Shown here piece by piece: positions 8,956-18,952 of a stretch of 64,000 bases of DNA. The DNA comes from Thermodesulfobium acidiphilum. Lineage in GTDB: Bacteria > Thermodesulfobiota > Thermodesulfobiia > Thermodesulfobiales > Thermodesulfobiaceae. Under the pieces are notes generated by a model that was not told where the DNA came from, did not search any database, and saw nothing but the letters and a program-made list of their open reading frames with translations. Each line of letters starts with the position of its first letter. The first letter of the stretch is position 1. Position numbers and translations under genes: made by a program. The stretch covers positions 1,352,916 through 1,416,915 of the forward strand of contig NZ_CP020921.1 of the NCBI RefSeq assembly GCF_003057965.1. The letters run 5' to 3'.

Positions 8956-9411
8956 ATGCTTCGCGCTATAAGAAAGAATAAAAGGGGTTTTACTCTAATA
9001 GAGCTGATGGTGGCGGCTGTTCTTCTCACCTTTGGCCTTATGACACTTGCTATGTCTTTGTTTGGATCTATAAGAGCTCAAGAGGCAGCGGCTCAGCAAA
9101 CAAATGCTCAAGGGTTGGTAAACCAAAGGTTAGCTCAGCTATCAGCTATGGCAAATCTTCAAAATAGCTCCGATGTGGCCGTTGGTTGGAATGCCCTCCT
9201 CGCTCAAAATGGAGTGACAGAAATAGTAAAGATAAATCATTCCCTTAATGGAAAAAGAACCACTACTGTTTCGGATAATAATCCTGGCACACAGTATGAA
9301 TATGCTGCTGTAATTGTTAGCGTTAGCTGGAATTGCGGCAAACCTGGAGGGGCGCTTTGCCAGGTAGAAGGATTTGAACGTATAGACAAGCCTCAGGGAG
9401 TCTTACCATGA
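8956..9411 (+). CDS. type IV minor pilin, PilV-like (cassette 2)
   Basis: KRG|FTLIELMVA; V.VSVSW motif. Confidence 0.87.
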   Translation: MLRAIRKNKRGFTLIELMVAAVLLTFGLMTLAMSLFGSIRAQEAAAQQTNAQGLVNQRLAQLSAMANLQNSSDVAVGWNALLAQNGVTEIVKINHSLNGKRTTTVSDNNPGTQYEYAAVIVSVSWNCGKPGGALCQVEGFERIDKPQGVLP

Positions 9412-10193
9412 AAGATAAATCTGGTTTTACTCTTATTGAGCTAATGGTAACACTGATTATACTTGTGATAATCACAGCAGGAGTTACAGTGCTTCTTATC
9501 AACGCAAACAACACGCTTATCTCATCCCAAAACAGAAACATTACAAGCTCTGCTATCTCTACAGTTCAAATTCTTATGTCAAAAGACCTTACTCTGGCTG
9601 GCAGGGGTGTAAATCTGGACGTTGGTCAAAGTATAGCAAATGCCACTACGTTTGTTCCCGTACAGACTACTGGTGGGATAATCAGATTTAAGACTGCATG
9701 CGTTTATTATGATAGCTCAAATCCTTATAATACTTCTTATAAGATTGGAACAGATCCAAATAACCCTGTGTATGACGTTTCCTGTACTGCAAGCGATCTG
9801 ACGCCGAGGAAAGAGATAGAATATAGTTTAGAAAACAATCCGGATGGCTCAAAAAGCCTTCACAGAATCGTGACCTTTTATCGACAAGACTGGACTATAG
9901 TGGTGGGTAATCCAATAGACAATACAGTGACACCGAAAAATGTAAACGTAATAAGTGTTGTCCCTACCTGCTATAACTATTGTAGCGATTCAACCTGCTC
10001 ATCTATAGTAGATCCTCCACACACGGTTTCTTGCTCTATAAATAATACCAACCCAGTGGATCTGAGTAAAAACGTGCAAAGCATTCAAATTTCTATTACT
10101 CTGGAAGCCAACACCGGAGTCAGCCCTTCATTAAGAGGGAGTCAAACAGGGACATTTCAGGTTACTCCAATCTTTCTTGTAAGGGGGAATTAG
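9408..10193 (+). CDS. type IV minor pilin, PilW-like (cassette 2)
   Basis: KSG|FTLIELMVT; KDLTLAG; Cys-rich insertions; ATGA overlap with the upstream gene. Confidence 0.87.
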   Translation: MKDKSGFTLIELMVTLIILVIITAGVTVLLINANNTLISSQNRNITSSAISTVQILMSKDLTLAGRGVNLDVGQSIANATTFVPVQTTGGIIRFKTACVYYDSSNPYNTSYKIGTDPNNPVYDVSCTASDLTPRKEIEYSLENNPDGSKSLHRIVTFYRQDWTIVVGNPIDNTVTPKNVNVISVVPTCYNYCSDSTCSSIVDPPHTVSCSINNTNPVDLSKNVQSIQISITLEANTGVSPSLRGSQTGTFQVTPIFLVRGN

Positions 10194-10195
10194 AT

Positions 10196-12319
10196 GTGAA
10201 CAAAAATGGTTCTGCACTGATAATTGTCTTAATAATTATGACTTTGATATTAACTATTTCGGTGGCCATAGCAGCTCTAGGCATAAACCCAATTAAATTT
10301 GCAGCGCAAAATGCTCTATACGATCAGTCAGTTTATGCTGCACAGGATTTTTCGAGTAAATATATAAACGCTATAAAGCAGCAATTCGTAGCAAACCAAG
10401 GAATACCTCCAGATCCAAATAGTTTAGGAATCCCTACCAGCCAGCAATACAATACAAAGGGTACAGGAAATCCCAATATAGAGGTGGACTTAGCAAGCGC
10501 TGATTATGCATTTTACCCCGATCCAGCTAACTGGACAGATTGTCACTACGATCTTTCCTTTATAACAAAGGATCTAATCAGTGGGAAAAATGTATTGCAA
10601 TATAACGTACACTTTGACATAAACAACTCTCCCCCAAATGCAGCACTTCTTACTAATAAGGATTATCATTCAGGTGGAACTCAGGGCGGTAACTGGTGGC
10701 TGGGCGGCTTTAGCAGGGTGGTGGGACCATATTATACAAACGATGATATAGGCATCGCCTATTGGCAAAACGCAAACGCTAATGCGAAACCTCCTACTGC
10801 ACCGATGTTTGACGCTCTAAATAGATTCGTGCCCACTGCTCCAGCGCTTCCCGATCTGAGAGTGGGCGGACAAATTATATGGTATGGTAGCCAACCTGGT
10901 AGCTCTTCAGACTGGGAAAAGATTGCCTATCAGGGGAGCGCGGGCGTTAAAACAAATTACCCAAAATATTCTTTCGCTCAAAATGTCCTGAAGAGGGGAA
11001 TCAACCTTTTACCAGCAGAGGCTAAAGGGAACAGCACGCTAGCAGGAAGTAACAATAGCTTTGTAGCCTTTAATAGTGGATTTAGCTCAATTGTAGGAGG
11101 CAACTATTATTCCCTATATATAAATCCAAGTACAATAAACAACAATTATTCCGTGGATAAATTCGAGTTCTCTTCTATGAGGATGAACTTTCAGGTTAAT
11201 GGAAGACCAAAATATGCATCAACCTATCGAATTACCCTTTCGTCAAACTCAGGTGCGCAGTATAGGATATGGCTTATAGACATACCAAGAGATAGTGGTT
11301 CTACTGCTACTGATACTGAGCTATCCACGAAGATATTCTATGTTCAGAAATATAACAGTAAACTTGGCAAGTGGCTATATACGAATGATCCCCCATTTGC
11401 ATCCTGTCCCGCTGTTATAAATAGTGACAGGTGTAATCCTTATATAGTTACCGATCACACAGATTTTAATCTAATATACATAAATGGTCACGTTCAAGAA
11501 ATGCAAACAAGCACTCTGCCATCAAGCGACTACAATTCTCTAAGTGACCTGTACAACGCACTTACGCTTTCAGGACACGGGACTTCCTCAAGTGGCAATC
11601 TGGCAGATCTTGTAGCTGGTAAAGCTCCTGCTAACCCTCAAGATCCCAACAATCCCTGGCAATACTACGTATCTGGGAGGCTTACTGTGGCAGCAGCGGG
11701 CGATATTGTAATTGGAGACGGTGGGACCAATTATCTTAATTATAGTCTTACATATCCTGAGAGGCTCGTTAACCCTGACGGGAGCTTCACGTCGTATTCT
11801 GGGACAGATGATTCCAGATTTCTACTGGGTCTTGTGGCAAGAAATATATTCTTAAATGTAAAATCTAATGCCAGTAAACCTCCTTCCAAACCAGACTATG
11901 CTAATGATGGGACGAACGTTTCTGATAACCAAACTTACTCATTTGATGGACAGATCCTTACCTTTGGGACGCAAACGGGAAACAATGACAATACTATTCA
12001 GACAGGGGTATTTGATAATTATCACTATTATAGCAATGTGGCAAGTGGCAATCCTGCAAGCACCTCAAACTATCCATACTTCTCAGTGGGTTATGGCAGC
12101 GATAATTTGCTCGGATATGCCCTTACAAGAGGTATGTTAGTTGAGAACTGGCACGGGGTATGGGGCTTCTTCAATGGTAGCGCTCTGACAAATGGCTATC
12201 AAGATGAATATGTGTACGATAACCGCTTAAGATACTTTGTCACCCCATGGTTTCCGCTGCCAAAAAGCCCAAATATGTCGGCAAACTATAGCATGACGGT
12301 AGAGATAATAAAACTATGA
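10196..12319 (+). CDS. large PilX-like pilin / putative tip adhesin (cassette 2)
   Basis: KNG|SALIIVLII lacks Glu5; QSVYAAQ; GPYYTND; LTVAAAGDIVI; LGLVA; C-terminal GY...YVYDNRL....PWFP. Confidence 0.78.
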   Translation: MNKNGSALIIVLIIMTLILTISVAIAALGINPIKFAAQNALYDQSVYAAQDFSSKYINAIKQQFVANQGIPPDPNSLGIPTSQQYNTKGTGNPNIEVDLASADYAFYPDPANWTDCHYDLSFITKDLISGKNVLQYNVHFDINNSPPNAALLTNKDYHSGGTQGGNWWLGGFSRVVGPYYTNDDIGIAYWQNANANAKPPTAPMFDALNRFVPTAPALPDLRVGGQIIWYGSQPGSSSDWEKIAYQGSAGVKTNYPKYSFAQNVLKRGINLLPAEAKGNSTLAGSNNSFVAFNSGFSSIVGGNYYSLYINPSTINNNYSVDKFEFSSMRMNFQVNGRPKYASTYRITLSSNSGAQYRIWLIDIPRDSGSTATDTELSTKIFYVQKYNSKLGKWLYTNDPPFASCPAVINSDRCNPYIVTDHTDFNLIYINGHVQEMQTSTLPSSDYNSLSDLYNALTLSGHGTSSSGNLADLVAGKAPANPQDPNNPWQYYVSGRLTVAAAGDIVIGDGGTNYLNYSLTYPERLVNPDGSFTSYSGTDDSRFLLGLVARNIFLNVKSNASKPPSKPDYANDGTNVSDNQTYSFDGQILTFGTQTGNNDNTIQTGVFDNYHYYSNVASGNPASTSNYPYFSVGYGSDNLLGYALTRGMLVENWHGVWGFFNGSALTNGYQDEYVYDNRLRYFVTPWFPLPKSPNMSANYSMTVEIIKL

Positions 12320-12672
12320 AATATTTACTTTTTTCCCTAATCTTCTTATTTGTATTTTCTGGCTTGTCTCATGCTCTTATGTGGAGTCCAGACGATCCAA
12401 ATAGACCGAAGGTTATGCCAGAAAGCAGCGCTATGAGCAGCGAGAGTTCAAGTAAAGACCAGGAAATGACTAAAAATAACGATATGAATAATCAAGAAAG
12501 CACACAGCGCTACCAGAATAAAAATGTCCAAATTGCCAATAAAAATATGAATGTAACGAATCAAAATTACGAAGAAACAACCCCTGTAGTTTTTTATTTA
12601 CAGATGTTCGCAATACTTATAGGAGTTATTTTTAGCCTATTTTTATTTTTTAAGATTTTGCGCTCAAGATAG
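12316..12672 (+). CDS. exported protein with low-complexity linker and C-terminal membrane anchor
   Basis: Signal peptide ending SHA, S/N/Q-rich middle, C-terminal TM helix plus KILRSR; ATGA overlap with the upstream gene. Confidence 0.75.
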   Translation: MKYLLFSLIFLFVFSGLSHALMWSPDDPNRPKVMPESSAMSSESSSKDQEMTKNNDMNNQESTQRYQNKNVQIANKNMNVTNQNYEETTPVVFYLQMFAILIGVIFSLFLFFKILRSR

Positions 12673-12716
12673 AAATTTTCTAATTTTCTTGACATTAGAA
12701 AATTTTTTGATATATT
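12673..12716 (+). promoter_or_regulatory. promoter of the TonB-dependent receptor, overlapped by a 12-9-12 inverted repeat
   Basis: TTGACA (12689-12694)-N16-TATATT with extended TG; AAATTTTCTAAT-N9-ATTAGAAAATTT. Confidence 0.6.
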
Positions 12717-12745
12717 AAAATAAAATTAAAATTCTATTAGAAAAT

Positions 12746-12832
12746 GTCCTAAATGAATTAGGGCGCTTTTAAATTTATTAAATTTAGCATTAAAGCCATG
12801 AAGGCTTTTTGTCTTCATGGCTTATTTTTTTA
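12746..12832 (+). promoter_or_regulatory. leader attenuator: AUGAA-loop hairpins and an intrinsic terminator immediately before the SD
   Basis: 13-bp stem AAGCCATGAAGGC/GTCTTCATGGCTT followed by A(T)7; motif shared with the exbB leader. Confidence 0.65.
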
Positions 12833-12849
12833 AGGGAGGTAGAGGATAT

Positions 12850-14937
12850 TTGATTATTGTGTTAGTTTTTTTGTTTTTTGCTTTTTTTTATTCAGATTTG
12901 GCAGAAATTGGATTTTGTGATGACTCTTCTCAGTTTCAGGAGATTGTAGTCTACGGTAACAAGGAAAAAGAGAAAAATGCAGATGTGGTAAACGTATTCA
13001 AAGTAAACCCCGCTATGAGTTTTTCTATTACTGATTACCTCAAGGATATGGCAGGGGTAGAGATCTCAGAAAAATCACTTGTAGGAGACACGGGCGATGT
13101 GGTTAAGATCAGAGGTTTTGGGAATAGCAGATTGAAAGTATTCGAGAATGGAAGAGATATCAATGCCACAGGCGTTTATGGCGGCTTTTATGTGGACTGG
13201 AGCACCATACCGCCAATAAACGTTGACTCTATTAAGGTTATAAAAAGCGGCGTAGACGCTAAACTTGGAGTTTTAGGCGGCGCAATAGAGATTAAGAATA
13301 GAGTCCCGACTGGCACGCCAATAACAGAATTTTTTGGTTCATATGGGACTAGGGATACTCAAAATTACAGGTTTTATTTTGAAAACAAGATAAAGGATAT
13401 ACCCTTTAATATATCTATCGATCATCTCTCTTCTGACCCATTTTTACGAAACAATGATTTTCTATCAAACTCGTTTAACTTTTCCACGGTCATTCCAAAC
13501 GTTTTCGATGGTAAAATCAATGTCTCAGCTTATTATACAAAAGTAAAAAGAGGCCTTATAGTAAATAATAGAAAATCAAATGATCCTCAAAGCCCACTGT
13601 GGAATGTACCCATTGATCCATCATATCCCACATCACTTGGAGAATTTATGCCTCCTGGCGGAGGACCTACAAGAACGCCTGTAATGGGTGCGTACTGGCA
13701 AAAGGAAAAAACTCTTCTGGATCTGTCGTATGAACGAAAAATATTTGGATGGAATGCGAAGATTGCAGGCTTTACAAATAGGGAAGAAAGATACGAGGTA
13801 AATCCTGGGCTTCTTATAAGAGATCTAAAGCCTGATAAGACCGATGGATTCTATATGGATTTTAGCAAGGATTTTTCAAAGCACCACGTGAGATTTGGCT
13901 ATTACTTTAAAAATCAAGGCTCAGGGGACACATTTATAATTTATGAAAAAACAAACCCTCCCACTTACAATCAAAATAGCCCATCGAGCCAGAAGATAAT
14001 TTACAATTCAGCATATCTTGATGACAGATTTAAGATATCAAAGAGATCATCTCTTTATATGGGCGTAAGATACGATAGCTTTCACGCAGAGGGAGCACCC
14101 ATATTGCAGGATGGAAGAGGAACTTATGTTCAGGGTATATCTCTAACTGGCGATGCGATCACCCCAAGAATAAGCTTAGACTACGAGCTAACTAAAAACG
14201 ATACTGCAACTCTTTCAGTATTCAAATCTGCAAGGATGCCTACCAACCCTGAATACTATTGGTGGATCACAGGTTATAGCGGAGCAAAGCTCGCAAATGG
14301 TGCACCCGCTCCCGGTTATAGGCCAGTAAACTATCTTTTAAAGCCAGAAAAGGAGGACGCAGTAGAACTTAGCATTAAAGGAAAAAGGCTCGGAGTTGAC
14401 TACTCTATTAATGGCTATTATTATTCTATTCACGACTATATTATGTTTAGAATTGATCCAAATCCTACAAACAGAGTGGCTTACAACGTAGATGAAGTAA
14501 ATATATATGGAGCTGAAACAACGCTTAAAAAGAGAATAAAGGGCATTGATACGGTACTAACTTATACTTATCAGAAAAGCACAAAGGTTAACGACGCGCT
14601 TGACACCCAGCATCTGTTAAACGGTTTGGACTATTTTCCAAGAAGCATGGCGAATCTGACCTTTCAGAAAAAGTTTGATAACGGCTTGATTTTAGATTTT
14701 GACAATCACTACGTATCAAAGCAAAATTTGCTCTATGCACCAAATAGCAGTAAGCTTGAGCTTGTTTCGATAAAGCCATATTATACTGCAGACCTTGGGA
14801 TATCATACCTTGTACCAAAACACGACCTGAGGATGGATCTGATGATCTATGACATTTTTAATAAAAAGTATCAAGAGGTATTTGGGTATCCCATGCCAGG
14901 AAGAAGCGTATTTGGGTCTCTCACTCTAACTTTTTAA
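12850..14937 (+). CDS. TonB-dependent outer membrane receptor
   Basis: Signal peptide, EIVVYG TonB-box-like, plug motifs IRGFG and GGAIEI, GVRYD, LKPEK, C-terminal MPGR...LTF; TTG start after GGAGG. Confidence 0.93.
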   Translation: MIIVLVFLFFAFFYSDLAEIGFCDDSSQFQEIVVYGNKEKEKNADVVNVFKVNPAMSFSITDYLKDMAGVEISEKSLVGDTGDVVKIRGFGNSRLKVFENGRDINATGVYGGFYVDWSTIPPINVDSIKVIKSGVDAKLGVLGGAIEIKNRVPTGTPITEFFGSYGTRDTQNYRFYFENKIKDIPFNISIDHLSSDPFLRNNDFLSNSFNFSTVIPNVFDGKINVSAYYTKVKRGLIVNNRKSNDPQSPLWNVPIDPSYPTSLGEFMPPGGGPTRTPVMGAYWQKEKTLLDLSYERKIFGWNAKIAGFTNREERYEVNPGLLIRDLKPDKTDGFYMDFSKDFSKHHVRFGYYFKNQGSGDTFIIYEKTNPPTYNQNSPSSQKIIYNSAYLDDRFKISKRSSLYMGVRYDSFHAEGAPILQDGRGTYVQGISLTGDAITPRISLDYELTKNDTATLSVFKSARMPTNPEYYWWITGYSGAKLANGAPAPGYRPVNYLLKPEKEDAVELSIKGKRLGVDYSINGYYYSIHDYIMFRIDPNPTNRVAYNVDEVNIYGAETTLKKRIKGIDTVLTYTYQKSTKVNDALDTQHLLNGLDYFPRSMANLTFQKKFDNGLILDFDNHYVSKQNLLYAPNSSKLELVSIKPYYTADLGISYLVPKHDLRMDLMIYDIFNKKYQEVFGYPMPGRSVFGSLTLTF

Positions 14938-14941
14938 CCAC

Positions 14942-14982
14942 ATAAAAGCCCCCAACATAAAAAATTGGTTGGGGGTTTTTAT
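14942..14982. terminator. bidirectional intrinsic terminator
   Basis: AAAAGCCCCCAAC...GTTGGGGGTTTTT between convergent genes. Confidence 0.8.
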
Positions 14983-14983
14983 C

Positions 14984-15922
14984 TTAGTATTTTGTGTTTT
15001 TATCTCTTGCACCCCAGTATCCTGCAAGAGTAGAACCTGAGAGGTTGTGCCACACACTAAATATTGCACCAGGTAGTGCTGCTACAGGATTTAGATGTGC
15101 AATTGCAAGAGCGACAGCGAGAGCTGAGTTTTCCATACCCACCTCAAAAGCAATGGCCTTCGCTTTGTAGTGAGGCATTCTGGCTCCTCTTGCTATCCAA
15201 TATCCAAGACTAAGACCGAGTGAGTTATGCAGAATTACTGCAACAAAAGCTATCAGTGCTACTGTTGCTAGTTTTGCAGCACTTAAACCTACAACAATAG
15301 CTATTATAGCTATTATGCTGACTACTGAAATGACAGGGATTATTGTGATTATTTTTTTAATAAAGTTAGGTATAGTCATTCTAAGCATTATTCCAATTGC
15401 AATAGGCAAAAGTACTATCTTTAAAATATCAATAAAAAGACCACCTGGATCTATAGGGATAAATTTGCCTGCAAGGAATAAAAAAATAATTGGAGTAAGA
15501 AGTGGAGCTAAAAATGTATTTACGCTTGACACTGTAACAGAAAGTGCTGTATCGCCTTTAGAAAGAAATGTCATTACGTTTGACGCTGTGCCGCTTGGGC
15601 AGCATCCTACAAGAATCAAGCCAGCAGCGAGTTCGGGAGGAAGTCTAAGAAGCAGCGCAACAGAAAGCGCAACGCCAGGCATCACAAAGTATCTAATTAA
15701 AACGCCTAATAATATATCAAGAGGTCTGGTAAGAACTAATTTAAAGTCATCCAGAGTCAGAGTTAGTCCCATACCAAGCATTATTATCCCCAAAAGCCAT
15801 GGAATCCAGGAACCATAAGGCTTAAAAGGTTCAGGAAATAAAAACGCAACAACAGCAAAAATTACAACCCACAATGGAAATAGCTTTGTGATCCAATTGG
15901 AAACCCTTTCAAAAAATTCCAT
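14984..15922 (-). CDS. bile acid:sodium symporter family transporter (PanS-like)
   Basis: MLGMGLTL, GCCPSGTASNV, EVGMENSALA, FSVWHN. Confidence 0.9.
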   Translation of the reverse strand: MEFFERVSNWITKLFPLWVVIFAVVAFLFPEPFKPYGSWIPWLLGIIMLGMGLTLTLDDFKLVLTRPLDILLGVLIRYFVMPGVALSVALLLRLPPELAAGLILVGCCPSGTASNVMTFLSKGDTALSVTVSSVNTFLAPLLTPIIFLFLAGKFIPIDPGGLFIDILKIVLLPIAIGIMLRMTIPNFIKKIITIIPVISVVSIIAIIAIVVGLSAAKLATVALIAFVAVILHNSLGLSLGYWIARGARMPHYKAKAIAFEVGMENSALAVALAIAHLNPVAALPGAIFSVWHNLSGSTLAGYWGARDKNTKY

Positions 15923-16084
15923 TTACCCTCCTTAGTTTGTCAGATAATATGATAAAAAAAATATAATATTTAGTATAAATTATTTTATAATATTTTTCTA
16001 TGTTGAAAAGTTTACTTTTACAAAATCTTTATTATAAAATGCAATTATTAATAGGGACGAGAGTAAAGTAAATTTAAATTATTA

Positions 16085-16495
16085 TTATAATTCTTTATAC
16101 TCCACATAAGGCTTTATGTCCAAAATAGGCGTGCCATCTAACATATCAAGCCTTTTAACTTTTATTATATTTTCTGATTTATCCAGGACCTCAAGAACAG
16201 AAAGTCCTATTGGGTTTGGCCTGTATGGTGAACATATACTGAATACTCCCATTTTTATACCTATATGAGGTGGAGATTGAATAAGTTTTTCTTGAGAAAA
16301 AGGAGGAGATTTGTGAAAACAAAAAATTACACATATCTTATCTTTTGGCTTTATATCCCTAATTCCATCTTTATACTCAGGTAAGATAACCAGCTCTCCT
16401 TCAATATCAGAAACGCTCCAATGTCTGGGAACGCTAACAGAGCTATTTTTTACATAGCCAATTGGCACAAAGTTGCATTCAATTTTATTTTTCAT
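16085..16495 (-). CDS. TrmO/TsaA (YaeB)-family SAM-binding methyltransferase, single domain
   Basis: PIGYV, GVFS.CSP.RPNPIGLS, LDMLDGTPILDIKPY. Confidence 0.9.
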   Translation of the reverse strand: MKNKIECNFVPIGYVKNSSVSVPRHWSVSDIEGELVILPEYKDGIRDIKPKDKICVIFCFHKSPPFSQEKLIQSPPHIGIKMGVFSICSPYRPNPIGLSVLEVLDKSENIIKVKRLDMLDGTPILDIKPYVEYKEL

Positions 16496-16551
16496 ATTTT
16501 TCTCCTTTTTTATATATTTTGGAACTATACTCCTCCTTTGTAAATCATTAA

Positions 16552-17229
16552 CTAATCTTCTAACACAAATCTAATAGGTAAAATTGCCCTTGATTTAACA
16601 AATGCTCCGTTTTCTATAGCCGCCCTAAAAGTTGATTGTTTTACAGCATTTATTGCAGCCTGAGCAAAATCATCATTTGTGCTATTTAGCACCCTAACAC
16701 TTATAAGTCGACCATTTTCGTCAATTAATAACTCTAATACTACTTTACCTTCGATTCCCAGTCTTTTTTCTCTTAGGGGATATTCAGGAATTACCCTCTT
16801 TATAAATTTTGGACCATCTGATGAATCAAATGTTTTCGAATATATCTTATTGTTGCTTTCTCTTGGAGAGCCATCCTTAATCCCTCTATCCATTTTTTCA
16901 TTGTTTGAAAAGCCAGTGTTAACTTGACGTGAAATATCTACAGCCGAAATTTGAGAGGTAACTAAATTATTTATATTTACAGCTTGTGTACTATTAGAAA
17001 CCTTTTGAAGATTTGGCTCGGTTACATTTTTCTCTAAAGTTTTGCTGCTATTATCTTTACTACTTTTTTTATTTACAGCTTTTTGATTTTCTTGAAGAGA
17101 ATTTAGACTCATAATAAATATCGGTTCACTCTTTATAACGTTAGTAGCTCCCACTAGAAAAACAGTGCCAAAGAGTAATAAGTGAAATACTATGGAAAAA
17201 ACAAAACTAAGAGAAAGTCTTCTGTTCAA
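16552..17229 (-). CDS. tonB: energy transducer TonB
   Basis: TM helix with SIVFH motif, linker, C-terminal PEYP...GIEGKV domain. Confidence 0.9.
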   Translation of the reverse strand: MNRRLSLSFVFSIVFHLLLFGTVFLVGATNVIKSEPIFIMSLNSLQENQKAVNKKSSKDNSSKTLEKNVTEPNLQKVSNSTQAVNINNLVTSQISAVDISRQVNTGFSNNEKMDRGIKDGSPRESNNKIYSKTFDSSDGPKFIKRVIPEYPLREKRLGIEGKVVLELLIDENGRLISVRVLNSTNDDFAQAAINAVKQSTFRAAIENGAFVKSRAILPIRFVLED

Positions 17230-17636
17230 ATCCTTTCGTCCTTAAGCGTTTCTATGTTGTATCTTTCTATCCCAGCAGCCCTACACGCATCAATAGCCTT
17301 TACAACATAGCCAAACTGAGTATTTTTGTCAGCACGAATTTTTATTATTATATTTGGGTTATTTGCCTTAAGAGTTCTTAGCGTTTCAGTAATCAATTTT
17401 GGGTCAGTTTTATCTTCATTTATAAACATCGTCCCATCACTTTTTATGGTAAGCGGGATATCCTTAAGCTCTTCCTTTATAACTGCAGTCTTAGCCTGTG
17501 GCAAATCAATCGGGATGGCCCCCTGGGCTATCAGGGTAGCAGTAACCAAGAATATTATAAGTATGACCAAAACCACATCTACCAATGGGACAACGTTTAT
17601 TTCTGCTATTTCGTCGTCATGATTTGGGTTGTGCAT
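17226..17636 (-). CDS. exbD: biopolymer transport protein ExbD/TolR
   Basis: EINVVPLVDVVLVILIIF, DLP, IRADK. Confidence 0.92.
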   Translation of the reverse strand: MHNPNHDDEIAEINVVPLVDVVLVILIIFLVTATLIAQGAIPIDLPQAKTAVIKEELKDIPLTIKSDGTMFINEDKTDPKLITETLRTLKANNPNIIIKIRADKNTQFGYVVKAIDACRAAGIERYNIETLKDERI

Positions 17637-18072
17637 TATTTATATGCTCCTCATATGCATAGCTCAAATCTCTTGCTTTTCTAACAAAATAGTTGTATGC
17701 AATTACACATGGCACAGCAACAAATAGCCCCAGTGCAGTAGAGCTAAGCGCCTCTGCAATGCCATTCATCACCACTCTTACTCCAAAATCTTGCGAAATG
17801 GCAAGATCGTGAAATGCCTTCATAATTCCAAGAACTGTGCCAAATAGACCGATAAAAGGTGCATTACTGCCAACAGTTGCAAAAAAACCAAGCCTTTTGT
17901 TAAGAATCGATCTTAGATCAGAAGGAGTATAACTAAAGAGTTCCTTTTCAATTTTTCGCATAAAAAATATTTTTTCGAAAATAAAAGCAACAGATATAAC
18001 GCTTAAAATTATTAAGAGCACTAAAACAGGATCCCCACCTACCATTGCAAGATTTAATATTAACTTTGCCAT
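17617..18072 (-). CDS. exbB: MotA/TolQ/ExbB proton channel protein (compact)
   Basis: APFIGLFGTVLGI, GIAEAL.STALGL.VAVP; ATG 18072 after GGAGG. Confidence 0.92.
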   Translation of the reverse strand: MAKLILNLAMVGGDPVLVLLIILSVISVAFIFEKIFFMRKIEKELFSYTPSDLRSILNKRLGFFATVGSNAPFIGLFGTVLGIMKAFHDLAISQDFGVRVVMNGIAEALSSTALGLFVAVPCVIAYNYFVRKARDLSYAYEEHINNAQPKS

Positions 18073-18081
18073 AATTCCTCC

Positions 18082-18137
18082 TAAAAAAATAAGCCATAGA
18101 AAGATGTGCAATTTTTACACAAACCTTCATGGCTTTA
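18082..18137 (-). promoter_or_regulatory. leader terminator/attenuator, second copy of the receptor leader motif
   Basis: Minus strand TAAAGCCATGAAGG...ATGGCTTATTTTTTTA directly before GGAGG. Confidence 0.65.
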
Positions 18138-18274
18138 TCCTAATACTTTAATTTTATAATTTTAACAAATTCGATCTAAAAGTCAAACTATTTTTCCTGA
18201 ACTTCTGCGTTGATTATCAATTAAAGGCTTTATATGTTATTATATTATTATTCTAAAGAGTATTGGGAGCAAAT

Positions 18275-18952
18275 ATGAGAAAGTTATTATATATCCTTTT
18301 TGCTTTTTTATTTTTTGCAATTTTAGGTACAAATTCTGCTTTTGCAAATATAGAACTAATTGGGCCAGGTAAGCCAAACCCTCCTGGAGATTATATTTCA
18401 AATCTAAATCCTGTTTTGATCTGGAGTTCAGATAAAGATAGTTCGTATTTTAAAGTTGCTATATATCTAGAAGATAACAACTCTTTAGCACCAAAAATTG
18501 TTAGAGAATGGCTCTTTATAAAGGGTACTTCTATCAGAGTTCCAGATGGTGTTTTGTCGCCAAATAACACATACTTTTGGACAGTTACTGATATGCAAAA
18601 CTCTACCACTAATAATTACCTGTATTTCACCACTGTAAATCCAATAATAGTTAAAATTCTCGAACCAGGATCTGAAACATTTCCAGGATTTTTTGTCAAC
18701 CCAGATGACTTAAAATTTATCTGGAGATCTGAAAACGCAGATAAAATAAATTTGATAGTCTTAAGAATTGAAAAAGAAGGAAAAACTACTATATTATCAA
18801 AGGAATTTAACTCAAAAGAAAATGAATTTGACGTTTCTAGTAATCCTGATATTAAAAAGCTTTTTACCAGTGGTGATTATGAATATTACATTGTTGCCAC
18901 ATCAGGAAGTAATACAAAGGTAACATCAAGCAAGTTTTTTAGGATAAAATAA
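18275..18952 (+). CDS. exported protein with probable Ig/fibronectin-III-like domains
   Basis: Signal peptide ending AFA; P.L.W...Y.V...L.P...YFW.V pattern; repeated half. Confidence 0.65.
   Translation: MRKLLYILFAFLFFAILGTNSAFANIELIGPGKPNPPGDYISNLNPVLIWSSDKDSSYFKVAIYLEDNNSLAPKIVREWLFIKGTSIRVPDGVLSPNNTYFWTVTDMQNSTTNNYLYFTTVNPIIVKILEPGSETFPGFFVNPDDLKFIWRSENADKINLIVLRIEKEGKTTILSKEFNSKENEFDVSSNPDIKKLFTSGDYEYYIVATSGSNTKVTSSKFFRIK

Follow-up and report, generated by a model that had tools for sequence, protein, structure and literature searches.

DNA-binding regulators are the known means by which nickel import is controlled, and export is the target of the known RNA switch for nickel and cobalt. 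That switch, the NiCo (czcD) riboswitch, is an Rfam family with a larger multi-helix aptamer that switches on exporters, and in Helicobacter pylori exbB-exbD-tonB is part of the NikR regulon. Here we analyzed a 64-kb stretch (the window, at its full length) of the Thermodesulfobium acidiphilum genome (1.77 Mb, 33.7% G+C; G000 in our numbering), in which one short hairpin element stands in the leaders of two units, a TonB-dependent receptor gene and an exbB-exbD-tonB operon. With a probability of about 0.6, both sites belong to a family of 5'-leader transcription attenuators that serves a nickel (possibly nickel/cobalt) uptake regulon, is off by default and is opened by a trans-acting factor.

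The element would share with the NiCo riboswitch the RNA-level control of nickel/cobalt homeostasis by transcription termination, but it has no Rfam match and precedes importers. The guanidine-II (mini-ykkC) riboswitch is built of tandem small hairpins with variable stems and one common conserved loop. Tandem small hairpins, variable stems and one conserved loop type recur here, with other loops, a variable hairpin number, overlap with the terminator and, again, no Rfam match. NikR-controlled TonB-dependent nickel uptake in H. pylori (works cited in PMC11247825) likewise unites an outer-membrane receptor, ExbB-ExbD-TonB and inner-membrane importers in one regulon, but a DNA-binding repressor acts there, whereas here an RNA terminator hairpin is found and NikR is missing from the genome. 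In ANTAR leaders (the targets of EutV, NasR and AmiR), small 5'-leader hairpins, the last overlapping the terminator 5' arm, are held by a protein that prevents termination, which is known there and proposed here (excerpts of PMC8934654); the present leaders differ in their GAA-ending pentaloops or tetraloops, in having 1 to 3 hairpins, in a conserved CC/GG stem core and in a nickel-uptake regulon. Finally, the HMP-PP riboswitch (thiS motif) also places a very small sensor inside a terminator hairpin with hardly any leader upstream (excerpts of PMC6478431). Here, in contrast, the genes are nickel importers, no ligand is evident, Rfam gives no match and co-occurrence suggests a protein partner. 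The kind of element is known, that of terminator/antiterminator leaders, and its reader is probably new.

The two leaders and the genes they precede are laid out as follows.

12689..12716, plus strand: promoter-like site of the receptor leader, TTGACA-16-TATATT, 11/12 matches, TG before the -10
12746..12764, plus strand: accessory upstream hairpin GUCCUAA-AUGAA-UUAGGGC, with an AUGAA pentaloop as in the main element
12792..12808, plus strand: small hairpin B, (A)AAGCC-AUGAA-GGCUU(U), -6.4 kcal/mol, mutually exclusive with P1
12793..12823, plus strand: terminator hairpin P1, 13 bp, 5' arm AAGCCAUGAAGGC, loop UUUUU, 3' arm GUCUUCAUGGCUU, -21.3 kcal/mol
12824..12832, plus strand: A-U7-A tract, immediately 3' of the P1 stem
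12834..12852, plus strand: Shine-Dalgarno sequence GGGAGG (12834-12839) and likely TTG start of the receptor gene (12850-12852)
12850..14937, plus strand: TonB-dependent receptor, Plug and beta-barrel domains
18159..18186, minus strand: promoter-like site of the exbB leader, TTGACT-16-TAAAAT, 10/12 matches, TG before the -10
18121..18135, minus strand: small alternative hairpin of the exbB leader, AAGCC-AUGAA-GGUUU, -3.7 kcal/mol
18091..18135, minus strand: second-copy terminator hairpin, 5' arm AAGCCAUGAAGG, own inner stem UGUGUAA/UUGCACA, 3' arm CUUUCUAUGGCUU, one bulge, -20.4 kcal/mol
18077..18090, minus strand: A-U7-A (18090-18082) leading into the Shine-Dalgarno sequence AGGAGG (18082-18077); exbB ATG at 18072-18070
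16085..18072, minus strand: operon of exbB (18072-17617), exbD (17636-17226), tonB (17229-16552) and a 136-aa TrmO_N-domain protein (16495-16085)

A 14-nt block, TAAAGCCATGAAGG, occurs exactly twice in the window (12791-12804, plus; 18137-18124, minus), as does a 16-nt block, ATGGCTTATTTTTTTA (12817-12832, plus; 18097-18082, minus). Genome-wide, each is found only 2 times against ~0.03 expected under a first-order Markov model, and the 12-mer AAGCCATGAAGG 5 times against 0.30 under the same model, its fifth occurrence lacking a complementary arm. At each site the two blocks are the arms of one hairpin, followed by A-U7-A, a Shine-Dalgarno sequence and the start codon, so that both leaders (12793-12832, plus; 18135-18082, minus) carry the common 12-nt 5' arm AAGCCAUGAAGG, a complementary 3' arm and U7. 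Both hairpins are strong folds (z -7.5 in the receptor leader, -5.5 in the exbB leader). The receptor copy (13 pairs) ranks first among the terminator-like sites of the region scan; its 13-bp stem with 6 G-C pairs followed by A-U7 has the make-up of an intrinsic terminator. The promoter-like sites just upstream of both elements are the two best in the 5.9-kb region 12500-18400 and are kept in three sister species.

These results bear out the anatomy sketched in the first-pass annotation, namely a terminator-type leader common to two units, with arms that pair ahead of U7 and the Shine-Dalgarno sequence at both sites, shared arms around differing interiors, and a 5' arm that can instead fold as a small, mutually exclusive hairpin (AAGCC-AUGAA-GGCUU; -6.4 and -3.7 kcal/mol). 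Hairpin B overlaps nt 1-15 of the terminator 5' arm and is proposed to be both antiterminator and recognition module. The promoters are as close as had been claimed: the exbB site lies ~17 nt ahead of the element, and the receptor leader, ~65 nt long, holds only one small accessory hairpin, whose pairing a sister species preserves by a compensatory change (CCUAA/UUAGG to UCUAA/UUAGA).

A looser scan and a covariance model revealed four copies in the genome, which precede the receptor gene, exbB-exbD-tonB, a BtuFCD-like ATP-binding cassette (ABC) importer and cbiM(PDGLE)-cbiQ-cbiO. The third and fourth copies are:

C1:1343951-1344005, minus strand: ahead of a CbiA-family P-loop ATPase, a BtuF-like binding protein, a FecCD permease, an ABC ATPase and a class-I methyltransferase
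C1:765940-765986, minus strand: ahead of cbiM fused to a PDGLE domain, cbiQ and an ABC ATPase

Each of the four has a promoter-like site on its 5' side and a Shine-Dalgarno sequence on its 3' side, and two are in divergent intergenic regions; the exbB copy is one of these and therefore cannot be the terminator of an upstream gene. This placement speaks against reading the hairpins as ordinary terminators or as a dispersed repeat with no regulatory role, an idea that draws on some pattern matches resembling bidirectional terminators (L016, L131) and on the ordinary terminator at C1:176017, which shares only the stem base with the element and was rejected as a family member. That account is also at odds with downstream genes that are functionally coherent across phyla and with a 5' arm conserved even opposite a mismatched 3' arm (L159), and we consider it extremely improbable. 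Elsewhere in the genome, a perfect palindromic hairpin like the motif core, AGGCCATGAAG-loop-CTTCATGGCC, lies at C1:1696506-1696537, outside the window, with neither a clear U-tract nor a Shine-Dalgarno context.

The search of the genome and its relatives that the first-pass annotation had called for thus yielded four copies at home, a cross-phylum family and coherent downstream genes. The exact pattern, scanned in one genome per species, gave at least 120 loci. Under uniform base composition, simple arithmetic predicts ~130 chance matches to this pattern, yet among the matches listed 64 of 129 occurrences show an unbroken run of 9 or more outer pairs with a T-tract behind it. Desulfobacterota, Clostridia, Nitrospirota (Thermodesulfovibrio), Spirochaetota and others are the sources among the matches listed, and complete hairpin plus U-tract copies occur in dozens of genomes from other phyla. 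A model built from the 64 exact-pattern sequences detected copies in 28 of those genomes, 1 to 6 in each. With a degenerate pattern, copies were detected in 91 of 151 sampled genomes of the G046 class (Desulfobacterota, Desulfobacteria-type), with up to 15 per genome, and in 18 of 151 of the G042 class (Clostridia-type), compared with 3 and 2 genomes, respectively, for a reversed-pattern control. The covariance model R1, too narrow for this purpose as it was made from exact-pattern matches and scored 34 candidates per genome, matched in only 8 of the 151 G042-class genomes.

Two further hairpins came up in these scans. In a sister species (G001), a fifth family member with an accessory AUGAA hairpin (L154, C1:1572366-1572432, minus) is followed only by a very short open reading frame (ORF) and G-rich sequence. 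The hairpin AAAGCCCUGAAGGC...GCCUUCAGGGCUU with a U-tract (L248, G023:C1:1152567-1152619, minus) was rejected as a look-alike; it stands directly ahead of a cold-shock protein gene, in a genome with neither DUF3842 nor CooT, two proteins treated below.

The element is not catalogued in Rfam. At gathering thresholds, Rfam 15 gave no match in the 64-kb window and none in 20 loci (72 kb) comprising both other T. acidiphilum copies and 18 copies from other phyla. When E up to 10 was allowed across 12400-18500, the sole match over the element was a chance-level one to Qrr (21 bits against a gathering score of 50). The cobalamin riboswitch (RF00174) is absent from the window, the family loci and the whole genome, with a positive control in 7 of 14 reference genomes. 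The initial statement that no known aptamer is present therefore stood up to Rfam scans of window and family loci and to the genome-wide cobalamin riboswitch scan, and the Rfam check proposed with it returned no family for the window or the 20 loci. A full-text literature search on nickel/cbiM/nikM switches, DUF3842, nickel-responsive antitermination and the motif letters, with subscription-only papers and supplements outside its scope, returned no description of the element, nor did a term search of the catalogue papers PMC11109978 and PMC8632094. Judged by sequence and structure, the element is a widespread family with no catalogue entry.

We then considered the genes behind the element, running Pfam on up to three ORFs downstream at 38 loci. 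Uptake-type or associated families are present at 26 of the 38: CbiM and/or PDGLE (6), TonB-receptor Plug (6), TonB_C (3), the porins BBP2 or OprB (4), energy-coupling factor (ECF) S-components (4), SBP_bac_5 (2), DUF3842 (2), and CooT, DUF4198 and FmdE (1 each). Class-I methyltransferases recur at 4 of the 38. By its gene content, the element appears to mark a nickel or nickel/cobalt uptake regulon, with nickel taken as the metal because CooT and NikA-like binding proteins lie downstream. The earlier guess of 'a metal or cofactor' is thereby narrowed to nickel, possibly also cobalt, through the genes behind the four T. acidiphilum copies and the 26 loci elsewhere. T. acidiphilum itself encodes nickel enzymes, namely [NiFe]-hydrogenase large subunits and two Prismane-family proteins, one of which is probably a carbon monoxide (CO) dehydrogenase. 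LarC is absent from its genome, and so there is no nickel-pincer link through LarC there.

The methyltransferases deserve a separate remark. Class-I S-adenosylmethionine methyltransferases sit inside motif-led operons of several phyla (L012:3671-4267, minus; L050, L081, L082, L092), and their best NCBIfam hints are the DVU_1556 family and a corrinoid-protein-associated methyltransferase.

Conservation argues that the element acts as RNA. The 13-bp outer helix is paired at 95.3% in an alignment of 89 sequences, a figure that is partly circular, as the alignment was assembled with structure in view; the compensatory changes are not circular. Six helix pairs are altered on both sides, which none of 500 shuffles equals and no slid register approaches; stem variants of this type include AAACC/GGUUU, AGGCC/GGCCU, CCACGAAGG/...UUCGUGG, CCAAGAAGG/...UUUUUUGG and CAUGUAGG/CCUAUAUG. 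At three stem positions (the partners of 5'-arm G8, G11 and G12), 78 one-sided changes are found, and all are G.U with U on the 3' arm, a pattern that favors RNA read toward the downstream gene over a DNA palindrome. Over 71 sequences, each of the first 8 positions 3' of the stem has T as its majority base. The interior between the arms varies in length and sequence and usually forms its own helix, with arm spacing of 3 to ~50 nt. The 5' arm is more conserved than the 3' arm, and a sister species (L159) keeps AAGCCAUGAAGG opposite a 3' arm with two mismatches.

The same features bear on a different reading, in which the inverted repeat serves as a DNA operator: a nickel-responsive repressor with the logic of NikR would block transcription there, just past the promoter. 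The location of the repeat at about +1 to +60 of the promoter-like sites would suit such an operator, and the regulon is like NikR regulons, which in H. pylori include NikR-repressed outer-membrane proteins (excerpts of PMC11247825). However, the variable arm spacing and self-folding interiors do not fit an operator, the 78 one-sided changes would all be A.C mismatches on the other strand, a U-tract is present, and a domain search of the T. acidiphilum genome found no NikR_C domain. We regard a DNA operator as very unlikely.

The competing hairpin is conserved as well. In its core CC-AYGAA-GG the CC/GG is invariant, and 87 of 87 sequences have G9 paired with the C or U at position 19 as the adjoining base pair, whereas in the terminator this position 19 nucleotide is matched to its partner in just 68 of 87. 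An unbiased hairpin census over the 100 nt ahead of the element found GAA-ending loops on stems of at least 5 bp in 54 of 111 regions against 4.9 expected from shuffles (39 against 5.5 in a narrower earlier census), giving 1 to 3 hairpins per leader. By loop, the counts and shuffle expectations among the 111 members are 17 and 0.16 for AUGAA, 10 and 0.74 for UGAA, 9 and 0.88 for AGAA, 7 and 0.48 for AAGAA, and 5 and 0.06 for ACGAA. A leader-peptide attenuator was rejected: the ORFs opened by the conserved AUG run from 3 to over 30 codons, and the 3' arm falls in each of the three reading frames.

Two unusual arrangements of the hairpins were seen. Three tandem CC-AUGAA-GG hairpins stand ahead of cbiM in two Clostridia-class genomes (L252, L253), and two complete attenuators are arranged in tandem ahead of an ECF S-component gene (L256, G217:C14:27648-27756, minus).

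Tandem arrangements are known among riboswitches, and those seen here invite a protein-free reading. The CC-AYGAA-GG hairpin, with or without the upstream GAA-loop hairpins, would then be a terminator-embedded aptamer that binds Ni2+/Co2+ or a nickel-status metabolite and shifts the balance between hairpin B and the terminator. The very strong conservation of the RNA sequence across phyla is consistent with this, the candidate proteins discussed below have no RNA-binding hallmarks, and the architecture resembles the terminator-embedded aptamer described in excerpts of PMC6478431. But what is conserved amounts to a 3- to 5-bp stem and a pentaloop, which leaves little to build a selective pocket from, and leaders differ in hairpin number (1 to 3). 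The terminator is ~15 kcal/mol more stable, so that a ligand stabilizing hairpin B would turn uptake on, the wrong sign for a metal. A riboswitch would also leave unexplained the near-obligate presence of DUF3842 in motif genomes. We therefore judge it unlikely, and a protein factor is favored over a ligand pocket because the AYGAA/NGAA-loop hairpins are repeated in variable number.

Which protein could read such hairpins? Antiterminators of the ANTAR type are one class to consider, and T. acidiphilum encodes a REC-ANTAR response regulator (C1:864125-864754) beside a histidine kinase, of which the leaders might be targets. Known ANTAR targets likewise overlap a second hairpin with the terminator 5' arm, but they are dual hexaloops defined by A1 and G4 of the loop (excerpts of PMC8934654), while the loops here are pentaloops (A-Y-G-A-A) or tetraloops (UGAA/AGAA) on 1 to 3 hairpins and do not form a dual hexaloop. 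Nor is the T. acidiphilum gene beside nickel genes, its neighbor being ammonium-transporter-like as judged by ORF translations. The domain occurs in only 20 of 37 motif genomes and is absent from 17, which speaks against ANTAR proteins, named among the candidates in the first-pass annotation, as general readers of this RNA, and a role for the T. acidiphilum regulator at these leaders is most improbable. The locus itself (L217, G000:C1:863060-866212) comprises the 209-aa REC-ANTAR regulator, an adjoining PAS-type histidine kinase and, on the other strand, an ammonium-transporter-like membrane protein (neighbors by ORF translations); it is probably a nitrogen-related antitermination system apart from the nickel leaders.

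The protein-dependent attenuator reading instead finds its candidate in a conserved gene pair, DUF3842-cooT. In T. acidiphilum this is a two-gene operon (C1:674050-674676) with no hairpin of its own, and DUF3842 is present in 4 of 4 genomes of the genus. For comparison across phyla we used 37 'same domain' genomes (G004-G040), of which only G034 carries the motif, as the CCACGAAGG variant, and 36 do not. The distribution of the two proteins, with CbiM as comparator, is:

DUF3842: sister species 3/3; motif genomes of other phyla 26/28; G034 present; motif-free genomes 0/36; control genomes 0/14
CooT: sister species 3/3; motif genomes of other phyla 24/28; G034 present; motif-free genomes 1/36 (G021); control genomes 2/14
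CbiM: sister species 3/3; motif genomes of other phyla 26/28; G034 present; motif-free genomes 13/36; control genomes 3/14

The two motif genomes that lack DUF3842 are G041, a dubious bidirectional-terminator match, and G050, a 0.9-Mb partial genome. Larger samples agree: DUF3842 is found in 17 of 18 pattern-positive genomes of the G042 class (base rate 53/150) and in 90 of 91 of the G046 class, where the pattern occurs in only 1 of 16 DUF3842-free genomes. DUF3842 and cooT are adjacent in most genomes; their neighborhoods are otherwise unrelated, or lie within or beside motif-led operons. Within 3 kb on either side of DUF3842 in 12 pattern-negative genomes, one clear variant motif was found (G186), outside the strict patterns; thus the motif is usually not beside DUF3842. 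From these distributions, DUF3842 and/or CooT appear to be the only candidates that track the RNA.

CooT of T. acidiphilum matches PF10133 at 64.9 bits and has the hallmarks of the family, a length of ~63 aa, an N-terminal Met-Cys and a small beta-barrel. Its model (predicted local distance difference test, pLDDT, 93.7) aligns with Carboxydothermus hydrogenoformans CooT (6FAN) at a template modeling (TM) score of 0.90, and M1 and C2 are invariant in 26 sequences. CooT is described as a dimer that binds one nickel via Cys2 with a dissociation constant of 9 nM (excerpts of PMC6006190). Other fold neighbors are weak (RimM and Tudor-like small barrels, E at least 0.008) and give only a hint that the modeled barrel could be an RNA-binding fold. 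DUF3842 is a large family, with 4906 proteins at E up to 1e-5; among the matches listed, identity is 50-62% across phyla, with invariant glycine-rich and GENA motifs. Its model (pLDDT 93) has a Rossmann-like fold, and a PDB sequence search returned nothing relevant. A complex prediction of DUF3842 with two CooT chains scored 0.02 against a mark of 0.32, which weighs neither for nor against.

From the observed structure, conservation, covariation, position, gene associations and DUF3842-CooT co-occurrence, we infer in which direction the leaders regulate, that nickel is the signal and that DUF3842/CooT reads the RNA. Transcription would start a few to ~65 nt ahead of the element, and the nascent RNA would first fold the small hairpin with the core CC-AYGAA-GG (here AAGCC-AUGAA-GGCUU). 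Once the 3' arm is synthesized, the far more stable hairpin (~-20 kcal/mol) with U7 would form, and polymerase would halt just ahead of the ribosome-binding site, leaving the default state off. The energies, ~-20 for the terminator against -4 to -6 kcal/mol for hairpin B, differ by ~15 kcal/mol; therefore termination is expected by default and an antiterminator would be needed when nickel is scarce. Under scarcity, a trans-acting factor would bind the small hairpin, plus the upstream N(N)GAA-loop hairpins where present, and the factor-bound 5' arm would be kept from pairing, so that polymerase reads through into the transporter genes. Protein-dependent antitermination, as the first-pass annotation had surmised, is thus suggested by the energetics, the repeated hairpin modules and the tight DUF3842-CooT co-occurrence.

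The best candidate for this factor is the DUF3842-CooT pair. More specifically, we propose, tentatively and at somewhat less than even odds, that DUF3842 and the nickel chaperone CooT form a nickel-sensing RNA-binding antiterminator whose nickel-free state clamps the CC-AYGAA-GG and N(N)GAA-loop hairpins and opens the whole nickel-import regulon in many anaerobic phyla. The regulon would then comprise ECF and ABC importers, TonB receptors, porins, the TonB energizer and, often, the DUF3842-CooT genes themselves.

Several points weigh against these proposals. Termination, read-through and the nickel response are predictions from sequence. The NCBIfam name of the S-component, assigned by homology, is 'cobalt transporter CbiM', so cobalt is possible too, and T. 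acidiphilum copies 2 and 4 have no accessory hairpin. As to the reader, fold searches found only generic Rossmann-like neighbors of DUF3842 (TM up to 0.5, Z up to 9.7) and no RNA-binding relative, and DUF3842 and CooT are acidic to neutral (isoelectric point about 5.0-6.6). The motif stands directly upstream of DUF3842 in several genomes (G141, G248, G274, G226), as it would for a mere target. DUF3842 genomes with no strict-pattern match amount to 36 of 53 in the G042 class and 45 of 135 in the G046 class, and these counts, like those above, overstate independence, the sampled genomes being related and the motif sets partly chosen by motif. Co-occurrence may therefore reflect only one co-inherited nickel module of RNA and proteins.

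If the attenuator reading is correct, anaerobes (Desulfobacterota, Clostridia, Nitrospirota, Spirochaetota and Thermodesulfobium) would have in the element a very common means of gating nickel import at the RNA level, through which outer- and inner-membrane uptake steps are co-regulated by one RNA element. It would serve as a cheap predictor of nickel transporters among TonB receptors, porins and ECF S-components, and also of methyltransferases of unknown substrate. DUF3842 function becomes directly testable, as does that of many CooT homologs with no CO dehydrogenase link. Should DUF3842-CooT prove to be the reader, it would be a metalloregulator acting on RNA, not DNA, and a protein family of several thousand members would have its first assigned function.

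Some features of the neighboring genes complete the description of the window. For the receptor gene, an alternative start is an in-frame ATG within the terminator 3' arm (12817-12852, plus), which would add 11 residues, with basic additions to the signal peptide; the TTG at 12850 behind the Shine-Dalgarno sequence is the likelier start. The stretch ahead of the receptor leader, 8956-12672 (plus), contains two genes that encode N-terminal methylation (pilin-like) motifs, as well as ORFs of 707 and 118 aa, neither of which has a Pfam family. The exbB-exbD-tonB operon ends with a gene (16085-16495, minus) for a 136-aa protein with a TrmO_N domain only (NCBIfam TsaA/TrmO, 109 bits). A second TrmO_N gene (L218:2564-2896, plus) adjoins DUF3842-cooT in an unrelated genome, and the TrmO_N protein may be a recurrent member of the nickel module.

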